Source: a virus (lineage: Duplodnaviria; Heunggongvirae; Uroviricota; Caudoviricetes). Taken from it: 64,000 nucleotides of DNA. This document shows positions 4,034 to 32,013 of this stretch, in pieces (the stretch's first letter is position 1; every line of letters begins with the position of its first letter). The DNA lies in IMG/VR virus record IMGVR_UViG_2690316068_000002; one strand, written 5' to 3'. The translations under genes were made by a program, and so were the position numbers. A model generated the notes under the pieces. That model saw only the letters and a list, made by a program, of their open reading frames with translations. It made no database searches and was not told the DNA's origin.

Positions 4034-4678
4034 CTAATGAACGGTTACTCGGCCACAGAACCGGTTTTCTATCTTTTCTACAGCGTTATCTAGCATTCTC
4101 ATCACTGATCTGGCTCTTGCTTCAACCGTGCGATATCGGTTGGAAACGACGAAGGTTTGCAGATCTCCCCTTTGCGGATGCAGGTGAATTTTTGTCAGTT
4201 CCCCGCACATCAACGCATCAATACGAGCGACATACAGACGGTCTAATGATGCTCGTTGTGATCGCAAGTAATCTCGCTCTGAGAGAGCGACCCCCGGGCG
4301 TAGGCCAGCAATGGCGTTAAAGTTTGAAATAGCAGTTTTGTGGCAAAACTTTTCGATATCGAGGGCTAACTCAATACACCGATCTTCATTTGTATGGCCA
4401 ACCAAATCCAACGTGTAGGCCATAACATCAGCAGGTGTGCGATCGATAACAAAGCCTTCAACACCACGTGTAAGTAGCTCTATATGCTTTGCTATTTCCA
4501 TTTGAATCTGAAGCCGCTCATATAGAGGCATAGACTCACCTACTCGAACACCGAGGCGGCTCATCAAACTTCCGACACCAGCATCCACGTAAGGGATTCC
4601 GTAATGTTTGTCGATATATTTAGCCAGGGTTGTTTTCCCACTGCCCTGAGCACCAGTGATCCCAATCCGGTAATCCAT
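4034..4678 (-). CDS. P-loop nucleotide kinase, putative deoxynucleoside monophosphate kinase
   Basis: Walker A GITGAQGSGKTTLAKY at N-terminus; sits in nucleotide-metabolism cluster next to DHFR/ThyA. Confidence 0.55.
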   Translation of the reverse strand: MDYRIGITGAQGSGKTTLAKYIDKHYGIPYVDAGVGSLMSRLGVRVGESMPLYERLQIQMEIAKHIELLTRGVEGFVIDRTPADVMAYTLDLVGHTNEDRCIELALDIEKFCHKTAISNFNAIAGLRPGVALSERDYLRSQRASLDRLYVARIDALMCGELTKIHLHPQRGDLQTFVVSNRYRTVEARARSVMRMLDNAVEKIENRFCGRVTVH

Positions 4679-26797: not shown

Positions 26798-27022
26798 ATG
26801 AAGCAACATCCGAATAAGCATATTCAAGCAGCCATTGACTATGCATTAAGTAAAGGCTGGATCTGGGTAGCTGCTGGTGGTGCTGCACATTGTTTTTGCA
26901 GACTGCGATGCGGTAATCCAGAAGGTGAACACAAAACTCACCAAATGAGCGTATGGTCGACTCCGGGTAATCCCGAAAACCATGCCAAACAGATCAAACG
27001 AATGGTTGATCGTTGTAAATGA
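26798..27022 (+). CDS. small Cys/His-containing protein, possible HicA-like toxin
   Basis: 74 aa; KGW-x-GG-x-H...H-x-MSVW-x-PG pattern loosely resembles HicA/YcfA fold; followed by hairpin. Confidence 0.4.
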   Translation: MKQHPNKHIQAAIDYALSKGWIWVAAGGAAHCFCRLRCGNPEGEHKTHQMSVWSTPGNPENHAKQIKRMVDRCK

Positions 27023-27082: not shown

Positions 27083-27646
27083 ATGGCGCTTTATAACTTC
27101 ACTCTGACGCTCTCAGGCGTATCGTATGAGACGGAAGGACTGGAAGACGCGCTGTACCAAAACGGCTGTGACGATGCGCTAATTTGCGCATATGGAAACT
27201 CCGTCTATGTAGAATTTGACCGCGAAGCACAATCACTTGATGCAGCTATCGCATCTGCGGTCGACAATATTGAATCAGCCGGTATCGGTGCAATTGTTGA
27301 ATCCGTCGACTCGGCTCTTGTGGGCTTAAGCGATATCGCGGAACTGACAGACCTGTCTCGCCAGGCAGTGGCGTTGCTCAAAGACGGTAAGCGCGGAAGC
27401 GGCGACTTCCCTTGCCCTGTACAACGCATAAAAGGCCAGTCTCCTCTCTGGGATTGGGCTGATGTGGCTGAATGGCTCATGAATAACGGACGACTTAAAG
27501 AGGGCGATCAAATTGTCCAAAATGCCCGAACTTTGAGTAAATGGAATCTGGCGCTTCGAAACAGCGTCTCGAAAGATTTCAACGAAATAGAGCAAATTGC
27601 GGAGAAACTGATTAAACGCCGCAAAGATATTGCGAAATGCGCATAA
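27083..27646 (+). CDS. hypothetical protein with C-terminal helix-turn-helix, possible HicB-like antitoxin
   Basis: ORF 27047..27646; ATG at 27083 preceded by AAGGAAA; HTH-like IAELTDLSRQAVALLKDG. Confidence 0.4.
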   Translation: MALYNFTLTLSGVSYETEGLEDALYQNGCDDALICAYGNSVYVEFDREAQSLDAAIASAVDNIESAGIGAIVESVDSALVGLSDIAELTDLSRQAVALLKDGKRGSGDFPCPVQRIKGQSPLWDWADVAEWLMNNGRLKEGDQIVQNARTLSKWNLALRNSVSKDFNEIEQIAEKLIKRRKDIAKCA

Positions 27647-27975
27647 TGATGCCCGCCAATTGGCGGGCATCTGTTCTCTGTAAAGGTGTCTGGCATCGTC
27701 TGGTTCGTTAACGTTTACTAAACCAATGGTGACAAAAATTAGTTATCTTTGAAAAATAAAGGTTGCATGAAAAGAAGGGGTATGCGTTAATAGCATCGTT
27801 GGTTTGCAAGACAGACCTTATGTAAGCAGTTTTAGTAAAGCAGTCTCAGTTCAGTGTTATCTTCTGATTTCCCTTCTTCGTGAGTCTCCTCCTTAAGTGC
27901 CTAAGTAAGTCCCAATCTATACAGATCAAATTCTCGCCGCACTATGTGGCTCACAAAATTAAGAAGGTAATATCT

Positions 27976-28191
27976 ATGTCTAATAAAATGACTGGTTTAG
28001 TAAAATGGTTTAACTCTGATAAAGGCTTTGGCTTTATTTCTCCTGCTGATGGCAGTAAAGATGTTTTTGTACATTTTTCGGCAATTCAGAGTAATAATTT
28101 CCGCACTTTGGAAGAAGGCCAGCAGGTCGAATTCTCTATCGAGAATGGGGCTAAAGGCCCAGCAGCAGCAAATGTCGTTGCTCTAAGTTGA
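27976..28191 (+). CDS. cold-shock protein (CspA family)
   Basis: [71 protein letters not shown] is near-identical in pattern to E. coli CspA/B/G; RNP1/RNP2 motifs present; AAGAAGG RBS; long leader. Confidence 0.9.
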
Positions 28192-28461
28192 TTCAACGCT
28201 GATGATCCTCATTTCTACAATAACGAAGACGGTGTAAGCCTGAGTGGATAGATTTGTAGGATTGTACAAGTTGAATAAATTAGCATGGTAAGGCCATGCT
28301 AATTAAATCGACACAACGGCCAGTTTATTCCATAAAAGTGAATTGCCCATTGTGGCGAAATGCGGGGTTGCCGCATGAATAGTCAAAGGCAGAAGCTAAC
28401 TGCCGGCATGGCAAAACAAAGTGCGTAAGAGGAGTGACTTCCTCAACAAGCGCCATAATTC

Positions 28462-28490
28462 TTTATAAACCCGCCAACAGGCGGGTTTTC
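28462..28490. terminator. bidirectional terminator
   Basis: CCCGCC-aaca-GGCGGG with T-rich tracts on both sides. Confidence 0.6.
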
Positions 28491-28494
28491 TTTA

Positions 28495-31400
28495 TTACTT
28501 ATTTATTGTCTCCGCGATATCAGCCAGAATGGCCTCCAGTCGCTCTCCTTCTTCCGGTCGGAAGTACAGGATATTCGGGTTAAATCCGTAGAAGACGGTT
28601 GCATCAAGCTCTGGGAAGTACTCCTTACGACCAATCAGATCTGATGGTTTACTCTTATTGTTAAATAGTGCGGTTGAACGACTACCACACGTCAAAATGT
28701 AGGTCGGACGCACCAGATTGATCTCTTCACGCATAAAGTCGGTGAACTGGCCGATCTCGTCTTTGGTGTAGTCTTTTTCTTTGTCTTTAACCTTCTTGCA
28801 AACGCCTGTGACATAGAGATCGCCCATGCGTAAATCTCCAGCCGTCAATAGCTTGGCCTTAAAGTCGTCGTATCCGTTCTCCATGAAGTAACCGGTTCGA
28901 GCATCATTGCCGTTCGCATTGTCCAGAATGATCATGATTTTCGGCTTAATACCAATGTTGGGGCGGATTAGTTCATCACCTAAGCCCATTTCAGCCGCCA
29001 TCCGTGTCATGAGCACGTTAATCTCAGCCGAACGTTTGGGGTTCATCTCAAACGGACGTGAGGCTTTAACTGCGTCTATGACAAGGTTTCCCATCAATTC
29101 AGCCTGGTCGCGTAGGCGCTCTGGATCAGTTGCTGGCAGACTACCTGGCTCGATGGATGCAAACGCCCCTACTTTTTGCAGCGATTCGCGCACTCGACTA
29201 TTACAGGCACGTTTCTCGACAGCTTCTTCGAATTGCGCCAGTGACTCGAATTTGCCGCCAACTTTTTCTCGCGCTCTCATGATGGCTTGGCAGCCATTCT
29301 CAGAACACCCCTTCACAGCAGAGAAGGGCGCATACAGCACCTGGCTGCCATCTTCAAGCGTGCGGATCTCGATTCGGTTAGATGACACGTTAACGTCTGG
29401 TGGCAATACGCGAATACCATAGGTCAGCGCATCTTTAACCAGCCCCTGGTGTTTATCTTCGCCAAGAATAGTGAGAGCAGCAGCGAAAAACTCTGCGGGA
29501 TAATGAGTTTTCAACCACATAGATTGATAACTGATTAAGGAGTAGGCAACAGAGTGTGATTTATTGAACTGGTAGGCACCATTTTTTTCGAATGCGGTCC
29601 AGATCTCCTTCGCTTTCATCTCTGATAGCCCTGGATGTGACGCTGTAACGCGTACTGCGTTTATAGGTAGTTTTGCGCCGTGCTCAAGTGCCTCTTCGAC
29701 AGTTTTCAGAGTTCCGTCTTCGCATTTAAAATGTTCCGCACGGTGAATGCGCTGTGTAGTGCCATCTTCCAGCTCAACGTCTATCCAGCCAGCTTGAGCC
29801 TGAACGATGAACTTCTCGCCCATGCTCTTCATTTTTTCCATGTTCTTCTTACCGATTGCGGAACGCACACCGTCAGCTTCAGCCATTGTGAAGCCGGCAA
29901 GCAATCGAGTCGCGTTCATCGTCTGTTCCTGATAGAGAATCACGCCATTTGTTTCCGCGGTAAGTTCATCAAGAACGGGGTGTAATGATTCCGGCGTCAT
30001 AAAGCCTTTGGCGACAGAAACATAGTCGTCCAACATGCCGGATTGGATCGGGCCAGGTCGGAAGAGTGCGGTCGTGGCGACAACGGTTTTAAAGCTCATT
30101 GGCTCAATGCCACCGCCTAGATCTTTAAGCAGCTTGCGCATGGGGCCGGACTCCAGCTGGAATACGCCCTGTGTATACCCTGCAGCAAAACCATCCAGCA
30201 CCTTGCGATCTTCAAGAGAAATGGCATCAAGATTGATATCTTCACCTGTGTTCTCTTTTATGTAGCGTTTTGCACTATCGAGCAAATCGAGAGTTGCCAG
30301 GCCAAGCACGTCCAGCTTAATTAGGCCCATAGCCTCGCAGTAACGCTTGTCAAATGCGATACAACGCGCGTCACCACGGCGCTCAACCGGTGTACGTTCT
30401 GTCAGAGGAACACCTGCTACAATCATCCCTGCCGCATGTCTACCAAAGCCACGCATAAGGCTTTGTAACTTGCAGGCTGCATTGAATGCATCAGGATATT
30501 TTGTTGCGTATTTGTCGAGACTTGCCAGTTGTTCGCGCAGCTCTTCCAATGGAAGGCTATCATCCTCGACGTTCTTCAGTTCTTTTGATACCGCCATATC
30601 TGCGGACTCCACACCATAAATACGAGCGGTGTCACGTAGTGCAGAGGCTGCGCCCAGGTAGGTGAAGTTCGGAATGCCTGCAACGTAATCTTCGCCGTAG
30701 CGTTCATTCAGATACTCGATCACCTCATGGCGACGTGCCTGGCTGAAGTCCAAGTCCGCATCCGGCAAGTCGAGACGCTCAGGGTTGATGAAACGCTCAA
30801 ACAGAAGACCGTGACGGATTGGGTCGACGTTGGTTATGCCTATGCACCACGCCACCAGAGAACCGGCAGAGGAACCACGACCAGGCCCGACAGGAATGCC
30901 AGTTTCACGGCTGTGATTCATCAGATCGCGTACCATCAGGAAGTAACCACAAAATCCCAGGCGAGTCAGCGTGTTCATTTCGTACTTTAGCCGCTCAACA
31001 TAAACCCTGTTCTCAGAAGCAGGTGGTGTGTATCCAAACTCTTTTGTGGTAAGACGTTTACGCAGCCCTGCAACAGCCAGTTTCATCAGCGTTGCAGGTT
31101 CGTCGTCTGCCATCTTGGGCAGTGCTGGTGGCAATTCATGCCAGCGCCATGTGCAGGCATCGATAATGGAGTCCTGCGTTGTTGAGGCCATTGCAGCTGT
31201 TACCGGCACATCCATGCGAACGGAGAAGGCTTTAAGCGCCTCAAGGAGATGGCGACGACCATTGATGGCGTTATCTCGCTGGTGGGGGATACGCAGACGA
31301 TGCGGCTGGTCGATTTTTATGTTGTTCGTAACCATGTGCGCAATGTCTTTAATGTCTGCATCGTCGATCGATTCGTAATAAGCGGGATAGAACGCTACTG

Positions 31401-32013
31401 GCTCTATTTTCAGTGCGCTGGCTACTTTCATCGCTCGGACGTTAATCTGGTCGTAGAATGGGGTAGGGTGCGGATAAACCACGCTATAGAAGTTGTCTTT
31501 CCCGCCCGCTGTAATCAGTGAGCTTATGATTTTTGCAAAATCGTTGCGTTGGAACACGCTACCGATGTCGGAAGTGAGCAGGATGATGTTGCCTTTGGCA
31601 TATGTAGAAACCAACTGTTCGAGCGAGAGACGCGGTACAAAGTAGAACTGTTCTCGTGTGTTGGCCACCGTCATTAGTTCGCAGATGTCGCGATATCCTT
31701 GCTCATTTTTAATTAGAGCGGTAAACGAGTAGTTACGTCCCCGCTCTAATGATTCCATACATCTCATAGATTCTTTAGCAAGTTTAGCCCGGTGCTCGTA
31801 TGTGGGATCATCAACGATATTTAGTTTCACACCACAAATAACCGCCATGTCGTCACCAGCGGCACGTTGTAGTGGAATAACGCTCGCAATATTCATGCTA
31901 TCTGCTGAAATTACAGCGGTGTAGCCAGCTTCTCTGGCAATCTTCACCGCGTTTTCTGCTTTTAGAGCCGACTCCCCAAGTGAGAAGTCAGTTCGAACCA
32001 TCAGTGCCTTCAT
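28495..32013 (-). CDS. dnaE: DNA polymerase III alpha-like replicative polymerase (DnaE family)
   Basis: 1172 aa; block GYFLMVRDLMNHSRETGIPVGPGRGSSAGSLVAWCIGITNVDPIRHGLLFERFINPER matches the DnaE palm-domain signature; N-terminal PHP-like region. Confidence 0.85.
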   Translation of the reverse strand: MKALMVRTDFSLGESALKAENAVKIAREAGYTAVISADSMNIASVIPLQRAAGDDMAVICGVKLNIVDDPTYEHRAKLAKESMRCMESLERGRNYSFTALIKNEQGYRDICELMTVANTREQFYFVPRLSLEQLVSTYAKGNIILLTSDIGSVFQRNDFAKIISSLITAGGKDNFYSVVYPHPTPFYDQINVRAMKVASALKIEPVAFYPAYYESIDDADIKDIAHMVTNNIKIDQPHRLRIPHQRDNAINGRRHLLEALKAFSVRMDVPVTAAMASTTQDSIIDACTWRWHELPPALPKMADDEPATLMKLAVAGLRKRLTTKEFGYTPPASENRVYVERLKYEMNTLTRLGFCGYFLMVRDLMNHSRETGIPVGPGRGSSAGSLVAWCIGITNVDPIRHGLLFERFINPERLDLPDADLDFSQARRHEVIEYLNERYGEDYVAGIPNFTYLGAASALRDTARIYGVESADMAVSKELKNVEDDSLPLEELREQLASLDKYATKYPDAFNAACKLQSLMRGFGRHAAGMIVAGVPLTERTPVERRGDARCIAFDKRYCEAMGLIKLDVLGLATLDLLDSAKRYIKENTGEDINLDAISLEDRKVLDGFAAGYTQGVFQLESGPMRKLLKDLGGGIEPMSFKTVVATTALFRPGPIQSGMLDDYVSVAKGFMTPESLHPVLDELTAETNGVILYQEQTMNATRLLAGFTMAEADGVRSAIGKKNMEKMKSMGEKFIVQAQAGWIDVELEDGTTQRIHRAEHFKCEDGTLKTVEEALEHGAKLPINAVRVTASHPGLSEMKAKEIWTAFEKNGAYQFNKSHSVAYSLISYQSMWLKTHYPAEFFAAALTILGEDKHQGLVKDALTYGIRVLPPDVNVSSNRIEIRTLEDGSQVLYAPFSAVKGCSENGCQAIMRAREKVGGKFESLAQFEEAVEKRACNSRVRESLQKVGAFASIEPGSLPATDPERLRDQAELMGNLVIDAVKASRPFEMNPKRSAEINVLMTRMAAEMGLGDELIRPNIGIKPKIMIILDNANGNDARTGYFMENGYDDFKAKLLTAGDLRMGDLYVTGVCKKVKDKEKDYTKDEIGQFTDFMREEINLVRPTYILTCGSRSTALFNNKSKPSDLIGRKEYFPELDATVFYGFNPNILYFRPEEGERLEAILADIAETINK

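Follow-up and report, generated by a model that had tools for sequence, protein, structure and literature searches.

The window considered in this work is the whole 64,000-nucleotide (nt) stretch of the IMG/VR virus record IMGVR_UViG_2690316068_000002 (Caudoviricetes), in which a cold-shock gene of the CspA family, hereafter csp, occupies positions 27976-28191 of the plus strand. The region between the stop codon of this gene and its terminator contains a 111-nt four-helix-junction module (28349-28459, plus strand), which is very probably a real, conserved structured RNA and whose first helix competes with a long upstream hairpin designated P0 (28309-28357, plus strand). The conservation pattern of the module suggests an RNA family not described before, whose bistable architecture is unusual. 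The csp gene itself is ordinary and is already annotated elsewhere; the new part is the 3' RNA. An initial annotation of the locus, made from the sequence alone, mentioned several hairpins in the 300 bp downstream of the gene. These hairpins are confirmed: the 309 nt that follow the csp stop codon fold unusually well (z=-4.6) and the hairpins are conserved across clades. They constitute the most interesting part of the locus and had been under-rated at that stage.

The four-helix module and its competing helix

The module was delineated by means of covariation, RNAalifold, single-sequence folding and a covariance model. All of its elements are located on the plus strand and can be briefly described as follows. 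Helix P1 pairs 28349-28357 with 28451-28459 and encloses P2 (28360-28365 with 28371-28376), P3 (28387-28392 with 28400-28405) and P4 (28429-28433 with 28440-28444). The loop of P3 is the invariant AAGCUAA (28393-28399), and an invariant junction, AAAGUGCGUAAG, extends from 28418 to 28429. A candidate tertiary pairing would join the GUC of J2/3 (28382-28384) to the GAC of the P4 loop (28436-28438); all the corresponding alignment cells are pairable, the changes observed there being one-sided wobbles, none of them compensatory.

The structure was evaluated on an alignment of 26 distinct sequences of the 3' module (A3). In this alignment, 98.1% of the cells are paired and 7 pairs display compensatory changes. 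Such pairing and covariation scores were reached by none of 500 shuffles, and slid controls pair in 22-61% of the cells. RNAalifold independently recovered the same helices together with a two-pair extension of P1, with 9 compensatory pairs in total. The 111-nt sequence of the window, when folded alone, adopts the four helices and one small extra stem (-38.2 kcal/mol). Since G.U cells are frequent (59) and A.C cells rare (about 9) in the module alignment, the functional RNA strand is the csp strand. A scan anchored on P1 and P2 of one clade retrieved 49 instances, representing 18 sequence variants, and both the loop and the junction were exact in every one of them. The covariance model of the module (R1) detects exactly one copy in the window, with a score of 122 bits, and none after the cspA, cspG or cspI genes of E. 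coli K-12.

The module is conserved above its flanks (42-74% identity) and about as well as the coding sequence. When the window is compared with the copies found in the Qin prophage of E. coli K-12, in Klebsiella and in Citrobacter, identity over the block 28349-28459 amounts to 84%, 87% and 86%, respectively, and that of the coding sequence to 82%, 81% and 83%. The corresponding values are 56%, 66% and 66% for the proximal 3' untranslated region (UTR), 42%, 66% and 66% for the hairpin that follows it, and 62%, 74% and 72% for the linker.

The competing helix P0 is a long imperfect hairpin whose 5' arm (28309-28327) and 3' arm (28339-28357) form 19 pairs in the window, with bulges and C.A and C.C mismatches. 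Its 3' arm contains the 5' strand of P1, and the basal part of P0 and P1 are thus mutually exclusive, while the apical half of P0 is compatible with either state. P0 is predicted by single-sequence folding in every clade. On a second alignment (A6), 85% of its cells are paired and 7 of its 18 pairs show compensatory changes, scores which were again reached by 0 of 500 shuffles, the slid controls pairing in 23-46% of the cells. Two columns of the P1 5' strand covary with the P1 3' strand as well as with the P0 5' arm. When one or the other helix is enforced, the energy gap between the P0 and P1 states ranges from -4 to +7 kcal/mol in eight clades, at 37 C and 15 C. As two exclusive helices are both under selection, the RNA would appear to be meant to switch, or to be re-folded after processing.

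A further feature of P0 is observed in the Qin-type cassettes (minus-strand positions 2743-2692 of the Qin locus L158; phages 2H10 and Tritos), where the 3' arm of the preceding hairpin is a perfect Shine-Dalgarno sequence, AAGGAGGT, followed 8 nt further by an 11-codon mini-ORF (open reading frame), MKQWLAYLAKS*, that runs through the P0 5' arm. Judging from the pairing model, translation of this mini-ORF would open P0 and favor P1. Neither the Shine-Dalgarno sequence nor the mini-ORF is present in the window, and the mini-ORF is equally absent from the Klebsiella and Citrobacter copies.

A number of other identities were considered for the module and rejected. It is not protein-coding, as the ORFs differ between clades and indels of 1-2 nt break every frame. 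A tRNA-like cloverleaf is incompatible with the linker lengths, no T-loop motif was seen and the P3 loop lacks U33; ARAGORN likewise reported no tRNA or tmRNA in the csp 3' region. A hammerhead-like core (UGAUGA...GAA) is partly embedded in P1, where it varies (GAUG, GGUG or GGCG) together with the partner strand, and no Rfam ribozyme was matched. Pairing of the module with csp mRNA was assessed with RNAduplex by confronting the loop and junctions with seven csp mRNAs, and the energies were no better than those of shuffles: the invariant loop does pair with the RNP1-coding sequence in 4 of the 7 mRNAs, as do 17-35% of the shuffles, and no consistent site emerges. A search of region 28192-28500 against Rfam 15 returned chance-level matches only, located on the hairpin 28278-28304 (mir-2187, 27 bits as compared with a gathering score of 67) and on the terminator hairpin, and the other clades behaved alike at permissive E-values. 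A TTGGCA...TATGCT arrangement with a 19-nt spacer is found near the module in Qin and is absent from the window. No description of the module was found in the literature on the cspB 3' UTR or small RNAs (sRNAs), Qin and SSU5 cold shock, the coverage of which was incomplete, and the Cappable-seq supplements contained nothing for this locus.

The distribution of the module links it to CspB-type genes carried by phage-plasmids, lambdoid prophages and other islands in numerous genera of Enterobacteriaceae. The pattern scan located it in 26 species-representative genomes, belonging to Escherichia, Shigella, Enterobacter, Kluyvera, Kosakonia, Phytobacter, Raoultella, Superficieibacter, Pseudescherichia and others, and in more than 120 viral contigs. 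Among 5,426 complete E. coli genomes, 1,717 contain it, once each, and it is never annotated. It is also present downstream of cspB-like genes in the lambdoid phages 2H10, Tritos, HannyBb, PhiR42_1 and PhiR63_1, and in phage PHB10. The linkage with csp was judged where at least 560 nt of upstream sequence were available: everywhere it could be checked, a CspB-like gene ends 115-220 nt upstream of the module match, with the exception of two rearranged loci. The CspB-like proteins linked to the module diverge down to about 63% identity to the product of the window, and the CspB-type affinity of the window csp resides solely in its 3' region. One disrupted copy was encountered in Raoultella lignicola (around 4494-4555 of locus L022), where tandem copies of the 8-nt unit CTGAAAGC stand in place of the P1 5' strand and P2; the rest of the module (P3, the junction, P4 and the P1 3' strand) is retained. 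In phage PHB10 (locus L009, 3773-3974), the Rfam sRNA STnc100 was detected about 1.2 kb downstream of the csp cassette (52.7 bits for a threshold of 47).

The only known csp genes that display the whole layout of the window, namely leader, coding sequence, proximal 3' UTR, hairpin, P0, four-helix module and terminator, are the cspB of Qin and those of the lambdoid phages 2H10, Tritos, HannyBb and PhiR42_1. Homology to the Qin cspB extends through the entire downstream region up to the terminator. The Qin-type cspB is, like the csp of the window, a prophage moron. The cspB of Tritos is expressed in lysogens of strain LF82, and Tritos CspB and CspI have both been listed as morons with expression in lysogens (PMC9928086). 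The two types nevertheless differ in several respects. The Qin cassette is 71% identical to that of the window overall and 55% identical over the leader, and the sequences of the hairpins are unrelated. Qin-type cassettes are inserted between the Q antiterminator and the lysis genes, unlike that of the window. Finally, Qin and 2H10 carry a divergent cspF, whereas the cassettes of Tritos and of the window do not.

The region that separates csp from the module comprises two elements. The proximal 3' UTR (28192-28277, plus strand) is weakly conserved (56-66% identity) and contains the motif ACGAAGAnGG...GCCYGAGTRGA. It is followed by a U-less hairpin of 12 bp (28278-28304, plus strand) with a folding energy of -19 kcal/mol (z=-7.2). 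A hairpin of different sequence occupies the equivalent position in K-12 cspB, in the Citrobacter and Klebsiella copies and in PHB10. An experimental anchor is available in K-12, for which 'orphan' 3' ends have been listed by Term-seq at 1641226 and 1641224 (minus strand) under three conditions at 37 C, with 6.0e5, 1.2e6 and 2.5e6 reads, as compared with 5.7e4 at the attenuation site of the cspB 5' UTR (PMC7815308, supplementary file 1). These ends are located 113-115 nt past the cspB stop codon and 7-9 nt after a U-less hairpin of 10 bp. They fall within the AU-rich spacer directly 5' of P0 (2725-2727 of L158), at the boundary between the cspB mRNA and the module. When this end is transferred to the window, by homology only, the hairpin 28278-28304 probably represents the mature 3' end of the csp mRNA.

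On the distal side, an intrinsic terminator (28467-28495, both strands) is shared by csp on the plus strand and by the convergent dnaE gene on the minus strand. Its stem spans 28467-28488 and is followed by TCTTTATT on the plus strand. The dnaE gene (1,172 aa; ORF 28495-32013, minus strand) has its stop codon at 28495-28497, 7 nt from the terminator stem. The initial annotation had credited the gene with its own terminator. The terminator scan did identify one at 28467-28488, which lies 276 nt downstream of the stop codon; directly after the csp stop, the same scan found no terminator-like site, i.e. a hairpin followed by a T run. A similar bidirectional arrangement exists between cspB and ynfU in K-12, and the ynfU-side 3' end of the corresponding hairpin is listed at 1641060 on the plus strand (PMC7815308). 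No feature is annotated between ynfU and cspB in the RefSeq entry of MG1655.

The csp gene, its leader and its age

The csp coding sequence (27976-28191, plus strand) encodes a protein of 71 aa, with an ATG at 27976, a stop codon at 28189-28191 and a Shine-Dalgarno sequence, AAGAAGG (27961-27967), placed 8 nt before the start codon. The 103-aa ORF that starts with a GTG at 27880 results from a mechanical extension of this gene. The product consists of a single cold-shock domain (Pfam PF00313, residues 5-69, 115 bits for a cut-off of 27, E=1.4e-33) in which RNP1 (KGFGFI, residues 16-21) and RNP2 (VFVHF, residues 30-34) are recognized, and a downstream box is present in the gene at about 27988-28002. 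The NCBIfam model of the CspA subfamily was passed with 140.2 bits (cut-off 130) and the CspG equivalog model NF007378 marginally, with 146.6 bits (cut-off 144). The closest structure in the PDB is that of E. coli CspA (2l15, 1mjc; E=1.4e-32).

The ORF list and these profile scores agree with the initial annotation in that csp is a host-like gene of the CspA family. The further statement that the product matches this family almost residue for residue goes too far, as amino-acid identity is 82.9% with CspG, 81.7% with CspB, 81.4% with CspI and 72.9% with CspA. The proposed proximity to CspB and CspG holds at 82-83% identity, with the reservation that CspI is equally close, so that the protein is equidistant from the three paralogs. 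At the nucleotide level the coding sequence is nearest to cspB (82%), followed by cspG (80%), cspI (75%) and cspA (71%). The RefSeq plasmid entries already name the gene cspG. The neighborhood of csp differs from that of CspG orthologs, with a hicB-like gene and dnaE in place of cspH, ymcF, ymcE and gnsA. Judged on sequence and context, the name CspG is only a label, and the gene is better called a CspA-family paralog of the phage-plasmid lineage. By homology, a role as an RNA chaperone at low temperature is plausible, as the initial annotation had supposed.

A putative cspA-type promoter (27749-27791, plus strand) was read from the sequence using the columns common to an alignment of K-12 cspA, cspB, cspG and cspI, and would be expected to function as in these genes. 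It is composed of an A/T-rich, UP-like stretch (27749-27759), a -35 element TTGCAT (27763-27768), a 17-nt spacer, a TG (27783-27784) and a TG-extended -10 element GTTAAT (27786-27791). The csp promoter was not called by a generic sigma-70 scan because its -10 element lacks an A at position 2. Transcription would start at about 27798, a position chosen because the cspB and cspG constructs of Adams et al. begin with GTCGGTTTGAA (PMC7815308). The start of 27800 given in the initial annotation falls on this presumed site. An intrinsic terminator (27648-27671, plus strand; 10-bp stem with 8 G-C pairs and a T-rich tail) was detected by the terminator scan behind the upstream HicB-like/PDC-M06B gene. 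Because this terminator closes the upstream gene, csp forms its own transcription unit, and in the surroundings of this unit the scan reported only 27648-27671 and 28467-28488.

The 178-nt 5' UTR (27798-27975, plus strand) is of the cspA thermoregulator type. The corresponding Rfam family, RF01766, matches 27798-28215 over its entire length (model positions 1-428 of 428) with 187 bits for a gathering score of 78 (E=5e-51), a score that exceeds those of K-12 cspB (159) and cspI (113). The cold-box hairpin (27801-27817), an upstream-box hairpin with an enlarged loop (27936-27950) and the Shine-Dalgarno sequence are recognizable. In the K-12 alignment, the -35, the TG-extended -10, the cold box, the upstream-box hairpin and the downstream box are common to cspA, cspB, cspG and cspI. 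The long, host-like leader announced in the initial annotation is therefore substantiated by both the full-model match and the K-12 alignment. A temperature-dependent leader switch controlling translation and stability may be expected from membership in RF01766; the family covers leader and coding region only, and the 3' module lies outside it. Rho-dependent termination inside the 5' UTR or ORF of cspB and cspG has been reported by Adams et al. (PMC7815308).

As compared with the chromosomal paralogs, the layout of csp is conventional: E. coli CspG, CspB, CspI and CspA are also proteins of about 70 aa with a single cold-shock domain, RNP1 and RNP2, and their genes have a promoter and a long 5' UTR as in the window. 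The window csp is distinguished from them by its longer leader (178 nt), the enlarged upstream-box loop and its location on a phage-plasmid.

The element that carries csp is of the latter kind. Escherichia phage Cyrano (= pLF82) shares 99.8% identity with the region, and this near-identity, together with syntenic backbone genes, places the element among the SSU5-like phage-plasmids. Cyrano, the SSU5-like phage-plasmid of strain LF82, makes virions and is inducible by ciprofloxacin (PMC9928086). Over the csp region, some 90 plasmids of E. coli show an identity of 99% or more, and E. coli plasmids of 95-120 kb match it at 99.9-100%. The cassette occupies the same place in SSU5-like plasmids of Klebsiella and Citrobacter. 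Identity between the E. coli element and these relatives is 78-81% for the cassette, 79-81% for dnaE and 75% for the SSB/UvsY genes. With respect to the Klebsiella copy, csp differs at 36 of 45 synonymous sites and at 4 of 168 non-synonymous ones, which corresponds to synonymous saturation; with respect to the Citrobacter copy, the ratio of non-synonymous to synonymous substitution (dN/dS) is 0.037, indicative of purifying selection. On account of synteny, backbone-like divergence, synonymous saturation and this dN/dS value, csp is, by sequence comparison, an old resident of the phage-plasmid lineage that is kept by selection. That the locus is a genuine, selected CspA-family cassette of the phage-plasmid can be considered almost certain.

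Near-identity to a host gene, which the initial annotation regarded as the sign of an assembly chimera, was not found. The best chromosomal matches reach 71-73% (Qin cspB across the whole cassette; cspG across the leader and coding sequence), and the coding sequence is 71-82% identical to the chromosomal paralogs. Chimerism is excluded by these values and csp is confirmed as a genuine phage gene. CspA-family genes are rare in phages: 77 of 50,697 records contain one at E<=1e-8, and several of these are doubtful contigs. Phage csp genes are an already known category, represented by PHROG 729 ('cold shock protein') and by the lambdoid phages 2H10 and Tritos.

An additional observation concerns the leader, which is 96% identical between the E. 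coli window and Citrobacter pRHB20-C15_2 (locus L005), the adjoining coding sequence being 83% identical with 28 of 45 synonymous sites changed. Such a degree of identity may denote either a very strong constraint or a recombinational exchange.

Proposed function and competing explanations

The locus is probably a self-contained cold-shock cassette equipped with a conserved two-state 3' RNA, a reading that is proposed independently of any specific mechanism. Cold induction, chaperone activity, processing and a function of the module would combine as follows. The cspA-type promoter would drive a transcript whose 178-nt thermosensing leader, by homology to cspA, cspB, cspG and cspI, would cause the mRNA to be short-lived and poorly translated at 37 C but stable and open to translation in the cold. 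Upon chilling of the lysogen, the 71-aa product would add to the host Csp pool as an RNA chaperone or antiterminator. Transcription would run about 280 nt beyond the stop codon to the terminator 28467-28495, and the primary transcript would then be cut in the single-stranded spacer between the hairpin 28278-28304 and P0. The cut would leave a hairpin-protected csp mRNA and would free or expose the P0/four-helix RNA, in which the choice between P0 and P1 may set the fate of the 3' end, i.e. processing and decay, in a manner resembling retroregulation. The conserved single strands may bind some host factor, and the released RNA may act in trans. This cis-acting processing and stability switch is put forward tentatively, as a possibility that falls short of being probable.

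Structured 3'-end RNAs of comparable logic are known: in lambda sib retroregulation and in CpxQ and SdhX, a structured RNA ends in an intrinsic terminator and upstream processing sets the fate of the transcript or releases a regulator. The likeness to the module is a functional analogy, with no relationship in sequence or structure, and an invariant-core four-helix junction with exclusive, covarying P0 and P1 helices is not a feature of sib, CpxQ or SdhX.

Several points weigh against the proposed reading. P3 and the junction were already imposed by the first search pattern, a circularity that is only partly relieved by the scan anchored on P1 and P2. The covariation originates from few clades and consequently reflects few independent events, and the nearest-neighbor energies of the P0 and P1 states ignore tertiary contacts. 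One Klebsiella phage-plasmid lineage has kept csp while the module is absent and the downstream DNA is different; csp expression can thus do without the module. The Term-seq list for K-12 at 37 C gives no 3' end on the csp strand at the terminator behind the module (PMC7815308), so that either most transcripts would stop short of it or the module RNA would be unstable there. The sigma-70 scan, which also missed the csp promoter, found no promoter before the module. Lastly, csp is devoid of annotation in the Cyrano record OV696614.1 (50570-50782, corresponding to window positions 27976-28188). The gene is missing from the moron list of the Cyrano paper because it is unannotated in the published genome.

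Two of the competing explanations retain a functional RNA. The module could mainly be a trans-acting sRNA, cut from the csp transcript or made from its own promoter, with AAGCUAA and AAAGUGCGUAAG as seeds. This alternative, compatible with the preferred one, is possible, if on the doubtful side. The single strands are indeed strictly conserved, even between clades with a divergence of about 45% in the csp leader, the 3' end is formed by an intrinsic terminator with a U tract (TCTTTATT), the abundant K-12 mRNA 3' end is located just upstream of the module, and the module can be lost while csp stays. It is opposed by the unlisted csp-strand end at the module terminator in the 37 C Term-seq data, by the scan that found no promoter-like site before the module, and by the lack of an annotated sRNA at this place in MG1655 despite many sRNA screens; moreover, the close physical association of the module with csp points to a role in cis. 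The same abundant 3' end, directly 5' of a structured unit, could also be produced by a self-cleaving RNA, or the unit could be a riboswitch-like sensor in which a ligand, a protein or cold stabilizes P1 against P0. Invariant loop and junction cores, as well as two exclusive helices that both covary and are of nearly equal energy, are in line with this explanation. The module furthermore sits in prophage contexts, where self-cleaving ribozymes are abundant. In Rfam, though, none of the known ribozyme or riboswitch families is matched, and the K-12 3' ends at two positions 2 nt apart are reminiscent of nuclease trimming, not of one precise cut. A competitor helix placed 5' of the aptamer would also be atypical of a riboswitch, and the whole explanation is regarded as improbable.

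The two remaining explanations dispense with a functional 3' RNA or with a resident csp gene. The downstream conservation might reflect a hitch-hiking cassette, a site acting at the DNA level or a small protein gene, given that several automatic annotations place short hypothetical ORFs over the module and that many of the copies within E. coli are nearly identical. This is highly improbable in view of the compensatory pairs (at least 9), of the four helices kept across clades with flanks only 55-70% identical and of the strand-specific G.U bias. The frame-breaking indels and clade-specific ORFs noted above also speak against it, and the synonymous sites of the neighboring csp are saturated while the module stays 84-87% identical. 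That csp be host DNA, acquired by chimerism or very recent capture, or a defense effector of the retron Se72 type, can practically be discarded. The gene does look host-like, there is a weak match to the retron Se72 effector (53.6 bits for a cut-off of 82; PADLOC CSD_V, E=9e-16) and a candidate defense pair, PDC-M06, lies directly upstream. Chimerism is already refuted by the 71-82% identity of the coding sequence to the chromosomal paralogs, and a cassette whose position is shared by about 90 E. coli plasmids and by the Klebsiella and Citrobacter relatives, with backbone-like divergence, is at odds with a recent capture. As to a defense function, the two closest annotated records have no gene labeled as a reverse transcriptase within 6 kb of csp, the leader is a complete one of the cspA type, and the CspG and CspA scores are far above that of the retron effector.

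The most far-reaching interpretation would be that the module represents a new class of 3'-terminal switch for CspB-type genes on mobile elements, which would sense temperature, Csp level or a ligand through the competition of P0 with P1, would thereby govern the processing or decay of the csp mRNA and would perhaps be self-cleaving. It is offered as a speculation and considered unlikely. To our knowledge, studies of the post-transcriptional control of csp genes have dealt almost exclusively with the 5' UTR. A 3' element dedicated to these genes would represent a further level of control and might account for the abundant orphan 3' end downstream of K-12 cspB. The module would provide a compact model of a 3'-UTR RNA switch or of a 3'-derived sRNA, and it is directly testable in K-12 because an unannotated copy adjoins cspB in the Qin prophage. 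Phage csp morons being already known, the gene alone adds little; the wider relevance of the 3' RNA also concerns the way in which phage-plasmids tune the physiology of the lysogen outside the warm host.

Genomic surroundings of csp

In Cyrano, csp is surrounded by genes for a gp32-like SSB, a UvsY-like protein, an exonuclease, RecA and DnaE. The gene is placed after a T4-like recombination module (gp32-like SSB and UvsY-like) and a HicA/HicB-like pair, and before the convergent dnaE.

The two genes directly upstream of csp (26798-27022 and 27083-27646, plus strand) are named HicA and HicB in Cyrano. They match the PADLOC candidate defense pair PDC-M06A (E=1e-19) and PDC-M06B (E=1e-32), and a profile search yielded no Pfam match for either of them. 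A match to PHROG 2620, 'excisionase and transcriptional regulator', was obtained as well for the gene at 27083-27646. Neither gene of the pair occurs in the Klebsiella and Citrobacter relatives, in which csp directly follows the UvsY-like gene or a lipoprotein gene, and the pair thus appears to have been inserted in the E. coli lineage only. On the other side of the unit, these relatives possess an extra hypothetical gene of 426-444 nt between csp and dnaE. In Klebsiella pKp_SB617_1 (locus L004, 3251-5751), a NUMOD4/HNH homing-endonuclease gene adjoins dnaE, which appears split.

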